A DNA stretch of 64,000 nt from Patescibacteria group bacterium. Its GTDB lineage: Bacteria; Patescibacteriota; Patescibacteriia; 2-12-FULL-57-11. The notes under the pieces were generated by a model. That model was given only the letters and a program-made list of their open reading frames with translations, did not search any database and had not been told where the DNA came from. The stretch is from contig SCUL01000001.1 of the NCBI GenBank assembly GCA_004297205.1, positions 29,862-93,861 of the forward strand, in the 5' to 3' direction. The position numbers were made by a program, and so were the translations under genes. Positions 4,250 to 58,598 of this stretch are shown piece by piece (the stretch's first letter is position 1; each line of letters starts with the position of its first letter).

Positions 4250-7111
<2,862 letters not shown>

Positions 7112-7122
<11 letters not shown>

Positions 7123-7699
7123 ACAGGCGGCTGGCGACGGTAGTCTGGACGCGGACGGACGCGGCCGAGGCGCCGCTGCCGGAGCGCAAGGCGAGCACGA
7201 CGGTCACCGACGGCTGCGGCACGACCGAGCCGGGCGGCGAGACGAACGGGTCGGTGATCGGATTGACGACGACCATGAACTGCTCGACGACCGCGCCTTC
7301 CGGAGTCAGCGAGGCCGTTTCCCCGTTTTCCTCGACGAGCAGGCAGGGGCTCGATCCCGTCGGACAGCCGCTCTCCGACCGGCGGAAGGAAAACGTGCCG
7401 CCGCCGGACGCCGACAGGAACAGCCGCGTGTCGGTCAACCCGAGCGGGCCGCCTTCGGCCGGATCGGCGTACCGGGCATAGTCGATGCTCCCCCGCCGGA
7501 CGCCGCGGGCCATCTGTTCGACGGCCACGCGCGCCGTCGCCGCCAGCTCCTCGCGGCCCAGCACCTTGCGCTCGGCGCGGTTGGCGATCAGGAACATGTC
7601 GGTCACGGCGACCATGGCCGTGGAAAAAATCGCCACGACCACCAGCACCTCCATCAAGGTAAAGCCGGCACGACCCTTTTGTTCCTTACCTCCAGTCAT
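7112..7699 (-). CDS. Type IV pseudopilin (prepilin-type N-terminal cleavage/methylation domain)
   Basis: MTGGKEQKGRAG|FTLMEVLVVVAIF: leader ends in Gly, mature residue F1, Glu at +5. Confidence 0.75.
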
Positions 7700-10820: not shown

Positions 10821-12026
10821 CTAGAAGCTGTTGGCGATGTTGTACATGGGCAGAATCACGGCCGCGACCATGGTGCCGACGGCGACGCCCATGATGACCA
10901 TGATCAGCGGCTCGATCAGCGTCACCAGGTTGCCGACCATGTTGTCGATCTCGCGGTTGTAGAAGGCGGCCAAACGGCGCAGCACTTCCCTGATCTTCCC
11001 GGTGTCTTCTCCCACGGCGAGCATCTGCACCAGCATCACCGGCACCGCCTTGTTCCCGCTCATGACCGTGACGATGGAGTTGCCGTCCTCGACTTCCTTC
11101 TGGGTGCGCAACAGGATGTCGCGGTAGGTGGCGTTGCCGACCACGTTCGAGGCGATGCCGAGCGCCGTCACTTCGTCCACACCGCCGGCCAGGAGCGTGT
11201 CCATGCTGCGGGCGAAACGCACCAGCGCGATGCGCTTGAACAACCCACCGAAGATCGGCATGCGGATCTTCATGGCATCCCACACGGCGCGGCCGAGCGG
11301 CTGGCGGATGGCGAACTGCAGGCCGACGATGGCGCCGACCACGAGGATGATCACCAACCACCACCAGTGCTGGAAGAACGACGAGACGCCGATCAGGATG
11401 CGCGTCGAGAGCGGCAGTTGGGCGCCGGTTTCGGCCAGCACGTCGGTCAGTTTGGGCAGCACCCAGGTCACCATGACGAAGCCGACGATGCTCAGGCCCG
11501 TCACGATGAAGGCCGGATACATCATGGCGCCGCGGATTTTCGCGGTCAGGTCGTAGTCCTTCTCCTCCTGGTCGGCCAGATATTCCAGCACGTCGGCGAG
11601 ACGGCCGCTGGTTTCGCCGGAGCGGATCATGTTGACCATGAAGTCCGAGAAGGCATGGTGCTGCGCCATGGCGTCGGACAGCTTGGCGCCGGCTTCCACT
11701 TCGTCGGCCACGCTCTCCAGAACCTTCTGCAGCTGGCTGTTGGTGGTCTGGTTGATCAGCGCGCGCAGCGACTGCACCAGCGGCACGTTGGCAGAGACGA
11801 GCACGGAAAGCTGCCGCGCGAAGATGACGATGTCGCGCCGGCTGATGCGCTTCAGCCGCGCCAGCAAGGATTCCACCGTGGCCACGCGGATGTGCTCGGT
11901 GATCTGGACGTCCAAAAGACCCCGGTCCGTCAGAGTCGAGGCGGCGAATTCAGGAGTGTCCGCGTTGACGACGCCGCGGACCTCCTTGCCGCTGCGGTTG
12001 CGTGCGACGTAGTCGTACAGCGGCAT
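10821..12026 (-). CDS. pilC: Type IV pilus inner-membrane platform protein (GspF/PilC family)
   Basis: Two T2SS-F domains and about 400 aa. Conserved position downstream of pilB. Confidence 0.9.
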   Translation of the reverse strand: MPLYDYVARNRSGKEVRGVVNADTPEFAASTLTDRGLLDVQITEHIRVATVESLLARLKRISRRDIVIFARQLSVLVSANVPLVQSLRALINQTTNSQLQKVLESVADEVEAGAKLSDAMAQHHAFSDFMVNMIRSGETSGRLADVLEYLADQEEKDYDLTAKIRGAMMYPAFIVTGLSIVGFVMVTWVLPKLTDVLAETGAQLPLSTRILIGVSSFFQHWWWLVIILVVGAIVGLQFAIRQPLGRAVWDAMKIRMPIFGGLFKRIALVRFARSMDTLLAGGVDEVTALGIASNVVGNATYRDILLRTQKEVEDGNSIVTVMSGNKAVPVMLVQMLAVGEDTGKIREVLRRLAAFYNREIDNMVGNLVTLIEPLIMVIMGVAVGTMVAAVILPMYNIANSF

Positions 12027-12031
12027 GCTGC

Positions 12032-12421
12032 TCAGGAGACGTGCGCCAGGATTTTGCGCACTTTGGCGACGGTGTCGGCGGGAACGAAATGGGCCTTGAT
12101 GAGGTAATCCACGGCACCGCCCTTGAGGCCGCGCTGGACGTCCTCCTTCTGGCCGAGGTTGGTCAGGATGACGACCGGAATGTGCTTGGTCGCGGCGTCC
12201 TTCTTGAGTTCGTCGAGCACTTCGAAGCCGTCCATCTTCGGCATCAGGACGTCCAGGAGGATGATGTCCGGCAGCTCCTTGCGCGCCACCTTGAGTCCGG
12301 CCAGGCCGTCGCCGGCCGAGAGCACGTCAAAGCCCTCCAGGGAGAACTTGGTGGTGTAGATGCCGGCCAGGAAAGCGTCGTCTTCGACGATCAGCACCCG
12401 AAATTTTTTCTTTGCGGCCAT
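12032..12421 (-). CDS. Stand-alone response-regulator receiver domain (CheY-like)
   Basis: RVLIVEDD...ILLDVLMPKMDGFEVL...VVILTNLG..K: receiver fold with the phospho-acceptor Asp in LLDV. No output domain. Confidence 0.85.
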   Translation of the reverse strand: MAAKKKFRVLIVEDDAFLAGIYTTKFSLEGFDVLSAGDGLAGLKVARKELPDIILLDVLMPKMDGFEVLDELKKDAATKHIPVVILTNLGQKEDVQRGLKGGAVDYLIKAHFVPADTVAKVRKILAHVS

Positions 12422-42535: not shown

Positions 42536-45500
42536 CTAAAAATTCCTGCCGTCCCCCGGATACTGGACCGACGCCGCGGCGGTCGCCGGATCGTAGTCGG
42601 CGGGAGAGATCACGTCGCTGCCAAAGGCGTAGTTGCCGTAGAGGACGTCATTCACGTCATCGACCATCTGATTCCAATCGGGGCCGTAGATCGTGGCCGC
42701 GATGAGTTCGGAGGTGATCCAACGCAGGATGCCGCCGGAAGCGACGGCGTAGACTTTGGGATCGGTCAGGAACTTCACGAGACTGACGCCGGGCTTCGAG
42801 GTGACGTTTGCGCCGAGCGGGATGGTGGCGAGGTCCGACGCGCTCACGATCTGGATGCCGTTGAAGTCAGGGTACCAGGTGAAATAGACGTTTTCGTTCG
42901 GAAACGCATGGCGCTTGCCGTCGGTGCCGACGTCATAGACGGCGGGGTTGTCCGGCGTTTTGACGAGCGCATGGACAGCGACGTTGAGTCTTTGGAGATT
43001 GTCGAGAAGAGCGGTGGTCGGGGCGTTTGACGGCAGGGGTGCGGAGGTTGCAGGTGCGGGAGAAGCCGAAACCGTTCCTGTGACGGTGAGGAGGATCGTA
43101 TCCGTGTATGTCCCGGATGCGCCGCCGTTTGCGGTGTAGAACCGGACGTACACCGAGTGGTTGCCTGCGGCACAGACGGACAGACCCGTACAAAGGTTCC
43201 AGGATTTCGTTCTCGAGTACGTCTCAAGAGGAATGTTCGTGAAGTCCGCGCTGTTTGAAATCGCCATCGTCGCCGTGTCCGAACCGCCGATGAGCGTCAG
43301 CGTCACCGCCGTGCTCGTCGTGGATGGAGCGCCGCCGTTCACCGAGATGCTGAACCCGGTCATGGGGGGCTGGGGCGCGGAAACGTCGCCCCCGCCGCGG
43401 GTGACAGCCACGGTCGCCTGCCCGAACAAACCGAAGGTCGAGAATTGCGTGGTGGTGCACGTGACGGTATTCGTCTGTTCGTTCACGGAACAGCCCGTGA
43501 GCACGCTCCAAGCGGTCCCGTTCCAGCGGTAGATCCGCAAACTGGATTCATCAATGCCGGAAACATCGGCGGAGGCATACGCAATTCTCAGCGTGATGGG
43601 GTTGTTGAAGGACGTGATGGCCGTCGAAACGCCGGAGAGCGCTTGCAGGCTGTACATGTAACTGCCAATGGCGGAATAACCGCTCGGGGCGCTCGCCGTT
43701 GCAAGCACGGAGGCGGAATCCAGCTGGTTGATCTGGAAATTCGCATCGCTGCCGGAGAACGCCGCGGGCACGGTGAGCGTGATGCCGGTAGCGCCGCTCA
43801 ACAGGTTCATGGTGCCGCCGGCGGCAGCCGTCATGTCGGCGCTCGTTGATGCGGTGACGGCCGCGGAGCCGGTGCATCCGGTCGTCGTGAATGTGGCGTC
43901 CGACCCGGTGCCCAGGTTCGCATACGAGTCATTGGAACGCGGACGGTAATGGTAGGTCGTACACGGCAACAGTCCCGTGAGCGAGACGCTGTGGCTCGTG
44001 ACACGCGGCGATGTATCCGCTTCGGTGGACGTGCTGCCGTAGGCCGTCGTCAATCCGTAGTTGACCATCGAAGACCCGAGCTCGTTTGTCGTCCAAACGA
44101 CTTCCGCTCCCGACGCATTCGGCGTGGCGACAACGGAGGAGAACGTCGGACCAGCGAGATCGAATGCGAGAGAAATTTCCGCCGCGTTCGCCGTCTCATT
44201 CACCGTGGTCGCGTCGTTGTCATACGCAGAAACCGTGAAATAGTAAGTCTGTGCCGTGAGGCCGCTGATGTTCTTCGATAAGACGTTACCGACGTCCACC
44301 GTCGTCGTATAAACGCCCGGGGACGTGCCGTACTTCACCTTGTATCCGGCGACGGTGGCATCCACGGTCGAAAGATTGTTCCATGACAGTTGAACCGTAC
44401 TCGTCACCTGCGATGCGCTGAAACTCTTCGGACTCATGATGGAGAGCGCCCACAATCGCGCCATCTGCGTATGTCCGGCGGCGGTCGGATGCACGGGATC
44501 GCCCCCGTATAAGGCGATGTGGTTGCCGTAATACGTCCAGAAATCAGGCCCGCCGCCGAGTGCGTTGTTGCTCCGCAAGGTGACGATGTTCGGCAGATAA
44601 TTTTCGGTGTACGTATAGACGTTGCTGTAACTCGGTTTGGCGAGCCACATGGACGAACTCGCCGCGCCGTACGTGCTGGCGAGCGTGTTCATGATGGTCT
44701 GCATCTGTGACTGAAAATTCGTCGGTGTGACGGTCGCAATGCCGTCGTTCACGCCGAGGTGGATCAGCCACTTGTTCGGCACCAATGCCGCCTGCCGCGT
44801 CGACCACTGGCCGGTAGCCATGAGCGTGATGTAGTCCGTGGCTTTATAGCTTCCCCAGCCTTCATTCATGACGAACACCGGGTATCCGTAGTAGGTCGTG
44901 AGTTCGTCATTCAGTTCCGACATCCAGCTTTTCTTGTAAGAGAGCGATGTGGGTCCGAACTGGGCGAAGTTGCGATTGTCTGCTGACAGTGAACCCGCTG
45001 GCGCGTCTATCCAGCTCGTCACGGCCGTGGCGCCGTAATCCGTTCCGTAATACCCCTCCGTGATGGAATCGCCGATCGCCGTAATGATGTCGCCGATGCC
45101 GATGCTTGTAGCAGTGTCCTGATCGCCGGCGCCGGTCTGCACCACCTGCGAAGAATTCACGACATGCGCATCCAGGGTATACGTACCCTTGGCAAGCCCA
45201 GTAAAACTCGCGGTGAACGGCGAACTCATGTCGTACAACGACTGCTCGGTGCCGAGCCCCTCATTCAAAATGAACTTCACGCCGCCTCCGGCCGGTAAGA
45301 CGGTGCTGCCGACCGTTGCTGCGACCGCAAGCGTCGTGCTCGTCTGGATGTACGGGATGTAAAAGGTACCGCCCTCGTCGGTGATCGCGACGGTCGCGGT
45401 CTGAGGAGAAAGCGCGACGCTGCGAGACGGCGACGTGATGCTGATCGCGTCACTCGACGTGCCGTAGGCGTAAAAATTGTCGAACGAACCCGCGACCACA

Positions 45501-47014
45501 TTCACCCCGGCGGCAACGTATCCGGAAGCAAACGGACTTGAACCGTCCGTGTACGTCATGAGCGGCGCGCCGCGCGTTCCGCCCACCGGGTAGATGTAGG
45601 CTTGCAACACGGGGTTTCCGCTCGGATTGTCGACGGCTTCGAGCTCCATCGTGTACCACACGCCGTTCGTCAGGGCGTAGCTCGCCGTGGTCAACGTCGT
45701 ATTGCCCGGTGCGCCGGCCGCGTGTTTCAACAAGTACCACGAGCTGGCATCGGCATGATGCAGCAGGTACCCGCCCCCGTTGCCCGTCGCCGCGGTTTTT
45801 CTCACCCACAACTGATGGTTATCTCCCGTTGATTCCAAAAAATCCACTTTCACCCGTTCGTTGACCCAGGCCGACTGGCCGTTTGCGATTTGATTCGTAT
45901 CGAACGTCCCAACGCCGCTCGTCTCACTCACCACTTTACCGCCGTTTCCCGCGGCGACCGCCCACGTTCCTGCGCCGACCGCTTGCCAGCTGTTTTGGCC
46001 GGCAATGGCCGCGGTGTTCAGCGCGTCAAACGTGTCCGAAAAAATCAAGTCCAACGGCTTTGAATTCGGATTGTTCGACGAAAGCCCTGTCCCGTCCGAT
46101 GTCACCGCCTTGACGTTGAACTCGTATCGGACGCCGTTCGTCAATCCCGTGACGGTCGCCGTTGCGGAAGCGCTCGTCCCATCGTCGAAGGTCGTCCATG
46201 TTGTTGCACCGTATATGCGGTATTGGATGACGTAATCTGTTACTGGATTGGCCGTCGAAGGCGCCGTCCAGTTCAGCAACATCGACCCGTCAAGACTGCT
46301 TGCCGTGAGGTCGGTAACGACCGCATCCGTGCCGGTCACGGAGACATCATCAAAGGTGCTCGCCGTCGTTGATGACTCGAGAAAAATCGGCTTATTCGTA
46401 ATGCTCGTGTCAACGGTCATGGAACACTGCGAGACAAGCCCGGCGCCCGTGTCCATCAACACATCGAAACCCGTTGCCGTCACGAGGAGTTTGTACGTCG
46501 CACCGCTGGTGAGCGTTCCACAACTTAGATTTGAATCTACTAACAATCCGTTGCTCCAGTGCAACGCATAAATCGGACCGGATGTTCCTGAGAGATCGAT
46601 AATATATGCCTTGGTGCCCGCTGCTTGAAAATTATAATCACCGTATCCAAGCAACTGAGCGGACCCCGGCGTCATCTTTGCGACGATGCTCAAATTCGTT
46701 CTTTGGAACGTACTCACGGAATAAACCGCCGTGTTCCCCCATGTTCCGGAAAGACTGTTTGAGACGGATAAGCTGCCGTTCTGCGAAATATTCGCGCCGG
46801 GATCGACGACCGTCCACTTGGCGGTGTCGATCGTCGAACCCGTGAACGTATCCGTCAAAAGAGTTGCTGCAAAAGTGAACGGTGCATGATGAAGGAAAGC
46901 GACGACGCTACCGATGACAAACAATGCGCCGAATACAAATACGCGTAACTTCGAGGACCCCCCCCCCGCGGTTTTTGCCGTTTTTTGATCATAATTCCGT
47001 TGCAACGACCGCAA
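42536..47014 (-). CDS. Giant secreted surface protein (1492 aa) with multiple FN3-like modules and an SGNH/GDSL hydrolase domain
   Basis: TTG-initiated ORF. Signal peptide ...LRVFVFGALFVIGSVVAFLHHAPFTFA. IGDSITEGYYG (GDSL block I). Several about 90-aa modules with ...YEFNVKAVT... / ...YYFTVSAYD... FN3 signatures. Confidence 0.8.
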   Translation of the reverse strand: MRSLQRNYDQKTAKTAGGGSSKLRVFVFGALFVIGSVVAFLHHAPFTFAATLLTDTFTGSTIDTAKWTVVDPGANISQNGSLSVSNSLSGTWGNTAVYSVSTFQRTNLSIVAKMTPGSAQLLGYGDYNFQAAGTKAYIIDLSGTSGPIYALHWSNGLLVDSNLSCGTLTSGATYKLLVTATGFDVLMDTGAGLVSQCSMTVDTSITNKPIFLESSTTASTFDDVSVTGTDAVVTDLTASSLDGSMLLNWTAPSTANPVTDYVIQYRIYGATTWTTFDDGTSASATATVTGLTNGVRYEFNVKAVTSDGTGLSSNNPNSKPLDLIFSDTFDALNTAAIAGQNSWQAVGAGTWAVAAGNGGKVVSETSGVGTFDTNQIANGQSAWVNERVKVDFLESTGDNHQLWVRKTAATGNGGGYLLHHADASSWYLLKHAAGAPGNTTLTTASYALTNGVWYTMELEAVDNPSGNPVLQAYIYPVGGTRGAPLMTYTDGSSPFASGYVAAGVNVVAGSFDNFYAYGTSSDAISITSPSRSVALSPQTATVAITDEGGTFYIPYIQTSTTLAVAATVGSTVLPAGGGVKFILNEGLGTEQSLYDMSSPFTASFTGLAKGTYTLDAHVVNSSQVVQTGAGDQDTATSIGIGDIITAIGDSITEGYYGTDYGATAVTSWIDAPAGSLSADNRNFAQFGPTSLSYKKSWMSELNDELTTYYGYPVFVMNEGWGSYKATDYITLMATGQWSTRQAALVPNKWLIHLGVNDGIATVTPTNFQSQMQTIMNTLASTYGAASSSMWLAKPSYSNVYTYTENYLPNIVTLRSNNALGGGPDFWTYYGNHIALYGGDPVHPTAAGHTQMARLWALSIMSPKSFSASQVTSTVQLSWNNLSTVDATVAGYKVKYGTSPGVYTTTVDVGNVLSKNISGLTAQTYYFTVSAYDNDATTVNETANAAEISLAFDLAGPTFSSVVATPNASGAEVVWTTNELGSSMVNYGLTTAYGSTSTEADTSPRVTSHSVSLTGLLPCTTYHYRPRSNDSYANLGTGSDATFTTTGCTGSAAVTASTSADMTAAAGGTMNLLSGATGITLTVPAAFSGSDANFQINQLDSASVLATASAPSGYSAIGSYMYSLQALSGVSTAITSFNNPITLRIAYASADVSGIDESSLRIYRWNGTAWSVLTGCSVNEQTNTVTCTTTQFSTFGLFGQATVAVTRGGGDVSAPQPPMTGFSISVNGGAPSTTSTAVTLTLIGGSDTATMAISNSADFTNIPLETYSRTKSWNLCTGLSVCAAGNHSVYVRFYTANGGASGTYTDTILLTVTGTVSASPAPATSAPLPSNAPTTALLDNLQRLNVAVHALVKTPDNPAVYDVGTDGKRHAFPNENVYFTWYPDFNGIQIVSASDLATIPLGANVTSKPGVSLVKFLTDPKVYAVASGGILRWITSELIAATIYGPDWNQMVDDVNDVLYGNYAFGSDVISPADYDPATAAASVQYPGDGRNF

Positions 47015-47091
47015 TGATTAGAGTATAACAAAATTCCAATCTCCATAAAAGGTTGTCCTTTGGGCATTTTTCGCGTATCTTTCCGTCGTAC

Positions 47092-47165
47092 TCCGGGGTC
47101 GTCTAATGGTAGGACATGGGCCTTTGAAGCCCAGTATCATGGTTCGAATCCATGTCCCGGAACCA
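47092..47165 (+). tRNA. tRNA-Gln (anticodon UUG)
   Basis: Cloverleaf: acceptor tccgggg/tcccgga, D-arm gtct..ggac, anticodon arm tgggc-cuUUGaa-gccca, T-arm catgg-ttcgaat-ccatg, discriminator A, encoded CCA. Confidence 0.9.
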
Positions 47166-47197
47166 AAAGAGCGCCACAGCTGTGGCGCTCTTTTCGT
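47166..47197 (+). terminator. Intrinsic terminator after tRNA-Gln
   Basis: AGAGCGCCACA-GC-TGTGGCGCTCT followed by TTTCGTTTG. Confidence 0.65.
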
Positions 47198-47279
47198 TTG
47201 AGAAAAAGAAGAACTTGCCACTCGAAAGCATTTGCCTCGTACCGCCGAGGCCTGTAGAGACATCAGTCGATGGGTCAAG

Positions 47280-47800
47280 CGCGGACTCTAGATTGTGACA
47301 AATCAACCTAAGAGATACCCTGCTCACTGAAAGGTGTTAACTTGTCTCTAGACTATGACCGCCGACCCATACTTTCAGCCAGTGTCGGGAGACGAGTTGG
47401 CTGATACTTTCCGGCAAAAATGTGGCGACTCCCCGATCGCAACATATGATACCGATTATCAGTTCAATTATCTGAATCTCACTCTACTTCTTGGAATAGT
47501 GATTGTTGCTGCTTTGATAATTCACAAAAACCGTTCAAGAGTTGCAAAGCATGCAATGAGGATTGGAATATTTCTAAAAAGCCATATTTTGACTTCTCTC
47601 TTAATAATCTTGGCAATCACGTTGTCCTTCTCAATTGCCGCAGGCAACTTGGAGCTCAGGAATCGGATGGAAGAAAGTCTTGGACGCATTCCCGATCACT
47701 TTTACTCGGTTAACCATACCCCAACAAAGGCATACTTGGATGCTTATCAGGAATATTGGGGGTGCGGTAACAGCTTCTAAAAGACCTCCTCGGAACCAAA
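47280..47800. other. Low-GC islet (about 40% GC against about 68% flanks) immediately 3' of tRNA-Gln
   Basis: Visibly AT-rich 60-nt blocks (30-45% GC) spanning one small ORF. Short imperfect direct repeats ctctagattgtgac (47286) and ctctagactatgac (47346). Confidence 0.4.
47355..47780 (+). CDS. Low-GC small membrane protein (141 aa), likely horizontally acquired
   Basis: ATG start. Two TM helices (LTLLLGIVIVAALII and ILTSLLIILAITLSFSIAAG). Codon usage clearly AT-rich, unlike its neighbours. Confidence 0.5.
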   Translation: MTADPYFQPVSGDELADTFRQKCGDSPIATYDTDYQFNYLNLTLLLGIVIVAALIIHKNRSRVAKHAMRIGIFLKSHILTSLLIILAITLSFSIAAGNLELRNRMEESLGRIPDHFYSVNHTPTKAYLDAYQEYWGCGNSF

Positions 47801-47830
47801 AGCGCCTCGCATCTTGCGAGGCGCTTTTTG
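47798..47830. terminator. Bidirectional intrinsic terminator
   Basis: AAAGCGCCTCGC-ATCTT-GCGAGGCGCTTT followed by TTG, flanked by an A-run and a T-run. Confidence 0.6.
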
Positions 47831-47851
47831 CATAAAAAACACCCGCCGCAG

Positions 47852-48370
47852 TCAGCGGAGGGGCATGCGGTAGACGTGCGTGTCCACGCGCTCGTAGCCG
47901 AGGTTGACGTAGAACTGATGTGCATCGGCGCGGTGCGCGCGGCTGGTGAGCTGCATGCGCACGACGTTCTCGGCCTTGGCGACGCGATGCGCAATCGTCA
48001 TGAGCGTCCGGGCGATCCCCTGGCGCTGATGGGACGCGGTGACGATGACGTTGTGGATCGTCGCGTAGCGCCCGTGCATCGACTCGTGGATGCACAGCGT
48101 GACCATGCCGACAACATGTCCACGCCAGTCTTCGGCAACGAAGACGCGCTCCTTCTCGACCGTCGCCGCGATCGCCTCGGGCTTCAGCTCCACGTCGCGA
48201 CCGGACAACTCGCACAGCAGTTTCCAGACGTCCTTGGTAGAACTCTCGTCCAACGGCACATCATGGCGGTCGATCTCCTGCGGCCAGGAGTCGACACGGG
48301 ACAGCTCTGGCCGGGACAGATACCCGTAGCTGAGCACTTTTGTAACCCAGAGCGGAATCTCTTCCGACAT
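47852..48370 (-). CDS. GNAT family N-acetyltransferase
   Basis: ...VVGMVTLCIHESMHGRYATIHNVIVTASHQRQGIARTLM... contains GNAT motif A (Q/RxxGxA-like). Confidence 0.85.
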   Translation of the reverse strand: MSEEIPLWVTKVLSYGYLSRPELSRVDSWPQEIDRHDVPLDESSTKDVWKLLCELSGRDVELKPEAIAATVEKERVFVAEDWRGHVVGMVTLCIHESMHGRYATIHNVIVTASHQRQGIARTLMTIAHRVAKAENVVRMQLTSRAHRADAHQFYVNLGYERVDTHVYRMPLR

Positions 48371-48430: not shown

Positions 48431-48700
48431 TTACTTCATCTTCACGACCGTGTTCCAAATCATGGCGAGGACCCAACCCACGACGTAGCCGAAGAGGAAC
48501 GTCACGACGACGAGCCCGATCGCCGATCCGAGATTGAACGGCAGCACGGTGTACGGCGGCGTGATCATGTGCAGCCGGAAAATGAAGTCCAAGAACGGCT
48601 GTGCCAACCCCAAGAGGACGAGCAGCGACCAGACGAGGTGCCACAGGCCGAGGAAACTGCCGAAAATAAGACCGCACTTCTGCACATTGAGGGTGTTCAT
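48431..48700 (-). CDS. Small membrane protein (2 TM), hypothetical
   Basis: MNTLNVQKCGLIFGSFLGLWHLVWSLLVLLGLAQ... Immediately upstream of ftsX. Confidence 0.45.
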   Translation of the reverse strand: MNTLNVQKCGLIFGSFLGLWHLVWSLLVLLGLAQPFLDFIFRLHMITPPYTVLPFNLGSAIGLVVVTFLFGYVVGWVLAMIWNTVVKMK

Positions 48701-48710
48701 ACCCAATGGG

Positions 48711-49625
48711 TTACCGCTTGAGGTATCTGCCGACCGCGATGCCGCTCGTGATGGTCGTGAGCGCGGCGGCGACCAGGAATTCGATGCCGAAGATGCGCCA
48801 ACCTTCGCGTTCGAAGAAGCCGAGCAGGTCGAACTGCGTGCCGTCGAAGAAGTTGCGGATGCTGGGGCCGACCGCGCCGGACAGCGGGAAGATCACGGCC
48901 GCGGCGATGAGCGTGCCGAGCAGGCTGTAGAGCAACGCCTCGATGATGTACGGCATGCGGATGAACCAGGCCGACGCCCCGACCAGCCGCATGATGCCGA
49001 TTTCTTCGCGGTGCGTGTAAATCGTGATGCGGATGGAGTTCCAGACGATCAGCAGCGAAATGATGGCGAACAGCGCGCTGACGCTGATCGCGGTGCGCTC
49101 GACCTTCTCGGAAATGCGGCGGATGCGGGCGATCAAGTCCCGGTGGTCGTCGAAGTTCTTTTCCTGGATGTACGGCGCATAGGACGGATGTTCGAGCGAC
49201 GCCAGGATGGCCGGGTAGTCGTTGGTGCTGCGTGCCTTCACGGCCAGCGACGGCCCGAGCGGATTCTTGCCGAGCTCGCTGACCGCGTTCTGGATGGCTT
49301 CGTTGTCGGGATGCCGTTCCTGCAGCTTACGCAGCGCTTCGTCGGCGCTCGTCACGGTCACTTCCATGACGCTCGGCTGCGCCAACAGCGACGACTTCAT
49401 GGCAGCCACGACTTCCTCCCCCGCCGTCGGCTTGAGATAGACGGAGACGGAAATGCGCTGCGAGACGGCGTCGAGTGCCACGCCCGCCAGGATGTTCAGG
49501 ACGAGCAGGATGTTCACGGAAATGAGCGCGAGCGCCAGGATGCTCGTCGTCACCACGGACAGCCAAAAATTCCGGACGAAGTCCTGGAGCGAGGCTTTGA
49601 TGACGCGGAAGAAGGAAATGAACAT
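48711..49625 (-). CDS. ftsX: Cell division ABC transporter permease FtsX
   Basis: 304 aa with 4 TM helices and a large periplasmic loop. Located directly downstream of ftsE. Confidence 0.88.
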   Translation of the reverse strand: MFISFFRVIKASLQDFVRNFWLSVVTTSILALALISVNILLVLNILAGVALDAVSQRISVSVYLKPTAGEEVVAAMKSSLLAQPSVMEVTVTSADEALRKLQERHPDNEAIQNAVSELGKNPLGPSLAVKARSTNDYPAILASLEHPSYAPYIQEKNFDDHRDLIARIRRISEKVERTAISVSALFAIISLLIVWNSIRITIYTHREEIGIMRLVGASAWFIRMPYIIEALLYSLLGTLIAAAVIFPLSGAVGPSIRNFFDGTQFDLLGFFEREGWRIFGIEFLVAAALTTITSGIAVGRYLKR

Positions 49626-50421: not shown

Positions 50422-50495
50422 GCGGGTATAGTTCAATGGTAAAACGACTGCTTCCCAAGCAGTAGTCGCGGGTTCGATTCCCGCTACCCGCTCCA
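50422..50495 (+). tRNA. tRNA-Gly (anticodon CCC)
   Basis: Acceptor gcgggta/tacccgc, anticodon arm actgc-uuCCCaa-gcagt, T-arm gcggg-ttcgatt-cccgc, discriminator T, encoded CCA. Confidence 0.9.
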
Positions 50496-50512
50496 AGGGC
50501 ACGCTGCCGTTC

Positions 50513-50588
50513 GCCACCTTAGCTCAGCTGGTAGAGCAATGCTTTCGTAAAGCAGAGGTCCCGGGTTCGAATCCCGGAGGTGGCTCCA
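50513..50588 (+). tRNA. tRNA-Thr (anticodon CGU)
   Basis: Acceptor gccacct/aggtggc, D-arm agctcagctggtagagc, anticodon loop uuCGUaa, T-arm cccgggttcgaatcccgg, encoded CCA. Confidence 0.9.
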
Positions 50589-50622
50589 AAAGGACCGCAC
50601 CATGTGGTGCGGTCCTTTTGAT
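50589..50622. terminator. Bidirectional intrinsic terminator
   Basis: AAAAGGACCGCACCA-TG-TGGTGCGGTCCTTTTG. Confidence 0.65.
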
Positions 50623-58490: not shown

Positions 58491-58566
<76 letters not shown>

Positions 58567-58598
58567 AAACGCGCCTCACCCGGTGGGGCGCGTTTCTA
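58567..58598 (+). terminator. Intrinsic terminator after tRNA-Lys
   Basis: AAAACGCGCC-TCACCCGGTGG-GGCGCGTTTCT. Confidence 0.55.

Follow-up and report, generated by a model that had tools for sequence, protein, structure and literature searches.

How does a single gene of low GC content come to lie against the 3′ side of a tRNA gene in a GC-rich bacterial genome? The question is raised by a 64-kb stretch of a metagenome-assembled genome (MAG) of Patescibacteria (candidate phyla radiation, CPR), which we call the window and whose 64 kb set the bounds of our inspection. In it, a short islet starts at position 47166, the base after the CCA end of tRNA-Gln, and thus abuts the 3′ side of this gene, as the initial annotation of the sequence had stated. 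The islet carries one open reading frame (ORF), orf141, for a 141-aa membrane protein that NCBI records as EPO33_00425 of a “Patescibacteria group bacterium” on a 231-kb contig. The core claim of the initial annotation, an acquired low-GC islet at tRNA-Gln from which any integrase is gone, gains support from a direct repeat (CGGAACCAAAAG) of the tRNA end, from empty sites in relatives, from the codon composition of orf141 and from homologues on low-GC contigs. On balance, we favor the view that the islet (~633 bp, 47166-47798) is a recent single-gene insertion of the attachment-site (att) type at the 3′ end of tRNA-Gln, and that its recombinase is now absent.

The islet departs from the window in base composition at every scale that we compared. 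Segment 47281-47801 has 43.6% GC, the minimum among all 521-bp intervals of the 64 kb (mean 64.9%, sd 4.3) and ∼5 standard deviations (sd) below their mean, while the second-lowest non-overlapping interval (46521-47041) has 48.9%. Blocks of 30-45% GC against 65-70% elsewhere had been described initially; the low-GC segment is real, but its 60-nt blocks span 33-57%, and the few kilobases around the islet have 53-63% GC against a background of 64.9% overall. Intergenic gaps elsewhere in the window, against which the segment also stands out, have 64.1% GC when pooled (two of the pooled gaps were later found to contain missed genes) and a per-gap mean of 61.7%. The condition under which the initial annotation would have been refuted, a GC content no different from the intergenic average, thus does not hold. 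The AT-rich codon usage reported for the 141-aa ORF was likewise borne out: the GC content at third codon positions (GC3) of orf141 is 0.465, vs. 0.74-0.95 in the ∼55 other genes of the window. Given that GC3 is 0.86 in tm91, a membrane protein of the host that is similarly hydrophobic, hydrophobic amino-acid content does not explain the low GC of orf141.

The islet and its two boundaries consist of the following features, in window positions:

47092-47165, plus strand: tRNA-Gln (anticodon UUG), intact and with CCA encoded, the putative insertion target (ARAGORN; Rfam tRNA, 62.3 bits)
47158-47169, plus strand: left 12-nt repeat CGGAACCAAAAG, an attL-like core; exact direct repeat, made up of the final 8 nt of tRNA-Gln, with its encoded CCA, and of AAAG
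47161-47198, plus strand: terminator hairpin A, AAAAGAGCGCCACAGCTGTGGCGCTCTTTT, with 19-nt arms (-25.4 kcal/mol, z -6.05), which now terminates tRNA-Gln
47197-47790, plus strand: islet-specific DNA, 594 bp of 44.4% GC, absent from all related loci (boundaries from alignment A2)
47197-47354, plus strand: non-coding leader or promoter region of the islet, 158 bp (fold z -0.76, not significant)
47286-47299 and 47346-47359, plus strand: 14-nt repeats of the initial annotation, each with a TCTAGA palindrome, the second overlapping the start codon
47355-47780, plus strand: orf141, encoding a two-helix membrane protein of 141 aa, the sole gene of the islet
47791-47802, plus strand: right 12-nt repeat CGGAACCAAAAG, an attR-like core, at the GC transition back to host level (repeat search and alignment A2)
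47798-47828, no strand assigned: terminator hairpin B, bidirectional (-23.9 kcal/mol), which now terminates orf141
47842-47859, minus strand: terminator-like hairpin of the ftsEX-tm91-GNAT operon (-14.1 kcal/mol), overlapping the GNAT stop codon

The two exact copies of CGGAACCAAAAG lie 633 bp apart, each with a strong hairpin after it. When the next 2 kb were dinucleotide-shuffled 300 times, no shuffle matched the end of tRNA-Gln over 12 nt, and tRNA-Gln is the only tRNA of the window with a duplicated 3′ end, those of the other three being single copy. Hairpin B is the bidirectional terminator with which the islet had been said to end: its arms, at 47798-47811 and 47815-47828, pair perfectly at all 14 positions, and it is preceded by an A-run and followed by a T-run. 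The hairpin at 47842-47859 is separate from it, is host DNA and marks the right-hand limit of the islet. An independent Logan assembly (SRR8426588_277581, L026) matches the window at 2669 of 2669 bp (100% identity); it spans part of ftsE, ftsX, tm91, GNAT, hairpin B, the whole islet and hairpin A, ends at the 3′ end of the tRNA, and carries orf141 without a gene call.

Short direct repeats at the left edge of the islet had also been noted. These repeats, CTCTAGATTGTGAC (47286) and CTCTAGACTATGAC (47346), do exist and match at 12 of 14 positions, but they are internal, 120-190 bp inside the islet, and were equaled in ∼0.06 of shuffles; given this position and p value, we rejected them as element ends. 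The leader of orf141 (47254-47359) holds three copies of the motif TCTAGAG/CTCTAGA, in direct orientation at 47286 and 47346 and inverted at ∼47257; these copies, statistically marginal, may represent an operator. No consensus promoter was found upstream of orf141, and an Rfam search of the 158-nt leader returned only sub-threshold, terminator-like matches.

Related genomes reveal what the locus looks like when the islet is absent. An FtsX-based scan of species-representative genomes yielded two close relatives, L001 (FtsX 93% identical) and L002 (88%), and L012 and L013, whose groundwater site is that of L001, were retrieved from metagenomes by a 58-mer of the tRNA. Given that L001, L012, and L013 belong to one population, Hainich H41, we count them as one observation. 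All three are empty sites, with no islet and only one terminator between tRNA-Gln and the ftsX stop codon: the tRNA is followed directly by AAAAGCGCCGAGCTGAGCTCGGCGCTTTTTGCA in L001 and L013 and by AAAAGAGCGCCACATATGTGGCGCTCTTTTC in L012, and then by the ftsX stop codon. Position 7 of the tRNA is G in L013 and in the window and A in L001. In the more distant L002 and L006, tRNA-Gln lies near ftsX in the opposite orientation with unrelated genes between them, and orf141 is absent from the vicinity of ftsX and tRNA-Gln.

The side 5′ of the tRNA varies as well: L001 and L012 lack the gene for a 1492-aa secreted protein that occupies this side in the window, and have a 230-aa ORF ∼60 bp from the tRNA. 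At these loci, tRNA-Gln is thus flanked on both sides by strain-specific DNA, which is different in every relative examined. As for what else lies there, L002 has a 67-aa ORF between tRNA-Gln and ftsX (10915-11770), together with ∼450 bp of very GC-rich non-coding DNA 3′ of ftsX that has no Rfam match. L006 has (10918-12420) a 293-aa ORF that is SPFH/Band-7-like and a 99-aa ORF that is GIY-YIG-like, both by eye only.

The empty sites also bear on the origin of the two hairpins. In alignment A2, compared by eye, hairpin A is identical at ∼36 of 38 positions to the native terminator of L012, with the differences in the 2-nt loop. In the same alignment, hairpin B shares its left flank CGGAACCAAAAGCGCC and its right flank GGCGCTTTTTGCA with the terminator of L001 and L013, and differs from this allele only in a fully compensated upper stem. 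Hairpin B is thus orthologous to the terminator directly 3′ of tRNA-Gln in L001 and L013, and hairpins A and B are alleles of the single native tRNA-Gln terminator. The islet is therefore bracketed by two units, each consisting of a tRNA 3′ end plus a naturally occurring allele of this terminator.

The gene inside the islet points away from its present host. A word-indexed search of 5.8 billion clustered proteins recovered the orf141 sequence only from the NCBI genome that supplied the window. An exhaustive HMMER search of 1.84 billion representatives yielded seven homologues, of 132-166 aa and with 30-36% identity (E 1e-15 to 2e-4), and two more came from a profile search, for ∼9 in all. Their architecture is uniform, and the invariant residues of the family (C23, G24, P27, F116, Y117, and C137) are all kept in orf141; the family is thus genuine, though tiny and uncharacterized. 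The homologue contigs are all of low GC content (35-49%), with each gene within ∼7 GC points of the remainder of its contig, and the closest homologue (P0003, on L021) has 42% GC and a GC3 of 0.463, near-identical to the values of orf141. In a genome with a GC3 of ∼0.85, orf141 is not ameliorated. Given that its unadapted GC3 matches that of its closest homologue, the composition points to a recent acquisition: orf141 is at home in low-GC genomes, and its adaptation to the host has not begun.

Groundwater filter fractions of 0.1-0.2 μm are the source of several homologue contigs, and this provenance, together with T4SS-pilin genes, suggests that the homologue hosts are other Patescibacteria. 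The neighbors of the homologues vary, from FUR and ZnuA with T4SS-pilin genes nearby, to a helix-turn-helix (HTH) protein and DUF805, to DUF1801 and a SET-domain protein; no gene neighborhood is conserved among these loci and no mobility gene is found among the neighbors. None of the islet DNA recurs at the homologue loci, and no duplicated-hairpin structure was seen at the one locus inspected for it (L021). On the contig of homologue P0008 (L014, 35% GC; positions 838-2876 and 7196-7612), the homologue lies directly upstream of FUR and ZnuA; this contig also carries four tandem T4SS-pilin (PF18895) genes and, after a tRNA-Glu, 1.7 kb with no called gene (4856-6526).

We propose the following course of events. 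Low-GC DNA carrying orf141 would have entered the very 3′ end of tRNA-Gln by recombination, from a donor of ∼42-49% GC as judged from the closest homologue and its contig, possibly another lineage of Patescibacteria. The exchange would have taken place within the 12 nt of CGGAACCAAAAG, with this sequence and a terminator hairpin being duplicated on both sides. The tRNA would have retained a complete 3′ end followed by hairpin A, and the displaced tRNA end and hairpin B would now lie 3′ of orf141. Such a geometry results from att-site (integrase-type) recombination of a small circular molecule. With no recombinase inside, the islet could be a decayed remnant, or it could have been inserted by a recombinase acting in trans, in a manner resembling cis-mobilizable elements. 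The predicted sequence of the empty site is ...ATGTCCCGGAACCAAAAGCGCCTCGCATCTTGCGAGGCGCTTTTTGCA and that of the circle junction is ...AGCTTCTAAAAGACCTCCTCGGAACCAAAAGAGCGCCACAGCTGTGGCGCTCTTTT; the pattern of hairpin A with att was absent from viral contigs.

Around the islet, the gene order is fn3/GDSL, tRNA-Gln, orf141, GNAT, tm91, FtsX, FtsE (by position), tRNA-Gly, and tRNA-Thr, with these protein-coding neighbors:

42536-47014, minus strand: fn3/GDSL secreted protein of 1492 aa, on the 5′ side of tRNA-Gln
47852-48370, minus strand: GNAT acetyltransferase
48431-48706, minus strand: tm91, a 91-aa membrane protein
48711-49625, minus strand: FtsX; the adjacent ORF is assigned to FtsE by position only

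GNAT and tm91 are appended to the ftsEX operon, are convergent with orf141 and have a host-like GC3 (0.84-0.86). The 1492-aa protein has fn3, GDSL lipase, and purple-acid-phosphatase-N domains, and its gene is the only other compositional outlier of the window (GC3 0.74, and 0.63 in the N-terminal third); no flanking repeats were found for it. CCA is encoded by all four tRNA genes of the window (47163-47169, 50493-50499, 50586-50592, and 58564-58570), with an A-run after three of them (CCAAAAG in Gln and Thr, CCAAAAC in Lys) and CCAAGGG in tRNA-Gly. A Shine-Dalgarno sequence is present at 8 of the 52 longest-ORF starts in the window.

Several observations weigh against an att-type insertion. 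No integrase or recombinase was found in or beside the islet in the 64 kb inspected (Pfam and NCBIfam on orf141, GNAT, tm91, FtsX, and fn3/GDSL); orf141 is the sole ORF of the islet and the neighbors tested are not recombinases, as the claim that no integrase remains had held. No circular or excised form was observed, and no promoter was identified. The exact repeat has only 12 nt; its extension into the tRNA body, which would have made the right-hand copy a longer piece of decayed tRNA, is not significant (p ∼0.07-0.09). Both hairpins are native alleles at empty sites, such that the insert-borne one is not distinguishable and the duplication could have another origin. The islet is not the only DNA that L001, L012, and L013 lack: GNAT and tm91 are also absent there, which we regard as an older difference, distinct from the islet. 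The exact state before insertion, with tRNA-Gln followed by hairpin B and GNAT, was not found, and among the 5.8 billion clustered proteins GNAT had no close relative, its search returning only GNAT itself. Finally, no database or fold match supports a function for orf141.

Among the other explanations, the one that survives best, unlikely in our view though a serious possibility, involves no site-specific integrase. DNA of a related strain would have entered by transformation and been joined by homologous or homology-facilitated illegitimate recombination, and the duplicated tRNA end and terminator would have arisen incidentally, from microhomology joining or from the mixing of two terminator alleles. 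Patescibacteria are thought to depend on DNA uptake, the absence of an integrase would be expected, and the status of both hairpins as native alleles of one terminator in relatives fits well. The comparison of L012 with L001 lends further weight. The two contigs differ in 34 alignment columns over 5997 bp, all in three short patches, two of which flank the tRNA, and 27 of these 34 differences cluster immediately 3′ and 5′ of tRNA-Gln (L012 1-60 and 182-199 vs. L001 10894-11100, the contigs being otherwise identical over ∼5.7 kb). In the 3′ patch, the terminator allele is swapped, the upper stem is compensated and four synonymous changes fall in the last ftsX codons, so that this patch looks like a short conversion or recombination tract from a diverged relative. 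Recombination at this spot is evidently frequent, and such active exchange also speaks for the att-type insertion. However, homologous recombination alone creates no direct duplication of a tRNA 3′ end around new DNA, a 12-nt identity is shorter than RecA-dependent exchange usually needs, and the precise regeneration of a tRNA end is a hallmark of att recombination. Transformation would, moreover, merely shift the original insertion event to another strain.

A bolder version of the att-type insertion deserves mention, although we consider it rather improbable. The islet might be a live, minimal, integrase-less cassette of a single gene, with the tRNA-Gln 3′ end plus terminator hairpin as its att site, moved between Patescibacteria by a recombinase in trans. 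The terminator alleles in the 99.4%-identical population would then be footprints of insertion and excision, and the cargo family, with two helices and an outward-facing cysteine pair, would be a surface factor for an episymbiotic lifestyle or for phage exclusion.

Loss in the relatives rather than gain in the window strikes us as decidedly improbable. Under this explanation, the segment would be old in the lineage and would have been deleted from the sampled relatives between the repeat and terminator copies; the ∼40-bp direct repeat (12 nt exact) around 594 bp is a natural substrate for such a deletion, and all three empty-site contigs come from the one Hainich H41 population. However, a segment long resident in this genome is hard to reconcile with the unameliorated GC3 of orf141, equal to that of its closest homologue, with the absence of orf141 near ftsX and tRNA-Gln in the more distant L002 and L006 as well, and with its record from one contig only among 5.8 billion clustered proteins.

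It is highly doubtful that the hairpins themselves moved the islet, as folded single-strand sites of a mobile cassette akin to an integron attC or to IS200/IS605. One ORF between two near-perfect hairpins, each preceded by the same 12-mer, does recall such cassettes, as does the full pairing kept in upper stems that differ among alleles. The hairpins are, however, canonical Rho-independent terminators that are present at empty sites; no integron integrase and no HUH/TnpA gene lies nearby, neither a second cassette nor a further copy of the motif is present in the window, and the homologue loci lack both islet DNA and, at L021, a duplicated hairpin.

Least probable of all, and very unlikely, is an assembly chimera in which a low-GC fragment of another organism was joined into the contig: although the source is a MAG and contigs tend to break at the tRNA of this strain-variable site, the independent Logan assembly is identical at every base, the tRNA-to-hairpin-A junction is native in L012, and the 12 nt shared by the junctions are presumably too short to mislead a k-mer assembler.

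We therefore retain att-type insertion at the tRNA-Gln 3′ end as the favored origin of the islet, and turn to its cargo. As described initially, orf141 is a two-transmembrane protein: two hydrophobic helices are predicted (∼41-57 and 78-96), with a strongly basic loop between them (KNRSRVAKHAMRIGIFLKSH) and with acidic N- and C-terminal tails. From the positive-inside rule, we infer that the loop is cytoplasmic and that both tails face outward. In an AlphaFold2 model built on a 7-sequence alignment (mean pLDDT 70, pTM 0.36), the tails contain helices at residues 12-23 and 125-139 and strands at 31-37 and 117-123, which is consistent with the tails from both ends forming a small outward-facing helix/strand domain. 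The invariant cysteines C23 and C137 sit in the modeled terminal helices; a disulfide between them is offered as a hypothesis only. By these features, the product of orf141 most likely belongs to the cell envelope and acts on the outer side of the membrane.

The suggestion that orf141 could be an abortive infection (Abi) or superinfection-exclusion protein found no support, as PADLOC and PHROGs returned zero families for it and tblastn against phage and plasmid collections returned no homologue; NCBIfam returned nothing either. Pfam returned only LrgB (PF04172), at 17.2 bits where the cut-off is 25; the match is confined to the hydrophobic helices and was obtained for one of eight family members. 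An LrgB-like or holin-type identity was rejected given that this match is below the gathering score. When all family members were compared with Pfam and PHROGs, matches were weak and inconsistent, and no consistent family emerged. The fold search gave no match, and a sequence-profile search of the PDB gave nothing below E 0.45.

The locus is of interest as a base-by-base record of a gene that a high-GC genome would recently have gained from a low-GC lineage, here in Patescibacteria, an uncultured group whose mobile elements are poorly described. It also singles out the tRNA-Gln/ftsEX junction as a strain-variable hot spot, and defines a new small protein family, whose members are two-helix membrane proteins that share an invariant pair of cysteines.

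Several known systems resemble the islet in part. Like the small membrane proteins of mobile elements (superinfection-exclusion and Abi proteins, holins, and LrgB-like proteins), orf141 has two helices and lies on foreign DNA; unlike them, it has no PADLOC, PHROGs, fold, phage, or plasmid match. Miniature inverted-repeat transposable elements (MITEs) and insertion sequences are likewise small and have a short direct repeat at both ends. In the islet, however, no terminal inverted repeats pair the ends of 47166-47798 and there is no transposase ORF, for which reasons we rejected this identity; in addition, its 12-nt repeat is specific to the tRNA end, unlike a typical target-site duplication. 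With integron gene cassettes, the islet shares a single ORF and a hairpin-forming site, but it lacks the attC architecture (R and L boxes were not formally scored) and IntI, and has its own 158-bp leader and host-type terminators. Given that no integrase is nearby and that its hairpins are terminators also found at empty sites, it was not assigned to these cassettes.

Closer counterparts are found among integrative elements. Cis-mobilizable elements (CIMEs) are decayed integrative and conjugative or integrative and mobilizable elements (ICEs or IMEs) that have kept attL and attR and lost the genes for integration and transfer (PMC5704250). The islet resembles them in its att-like repeats, which would be functional att sites, in its lack of recombination and transfer genes and in its position at the 3′ end of a target gene. 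CIMEs are defined as descending from, and being mobilized by, a known ICE or IME family, as in streptococci; by contrast, no parent or helper was found for the islet, which is also much smaller.

Tyrosine-recombinase-type islands targeted to tRNA genes offer the remaining comparison. Like them, the islet lies at a tRNA 3′ end, has a repeat that regenerates the tRNA end, is foreign in composition and occurs sporadically among relatives; unlike them, it has ∼0.6 kb, one cargo gene and no integrase, excisionase, or transfer gene, its exact repeat has 12 nt, and its duplicated unit includes the whole terminator of the tRNA. A small foreign islet at a tRNA with a duplicated tRNA end is a known kind of object, and horizontal gene transfer of this sort is ordinary. 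Insertion at a tRNA 3′ end with duplication of that end is textbook, such that no new mechanism is involved, and here we infer the mechanism without an integrase at hand. What sets the islet apart within this known kind is its very small size, one gene in 0.6 kb, the duplication of a whole terminator as two alleles, and a cargo from an undescribed protein family in an uncultivated phylum.

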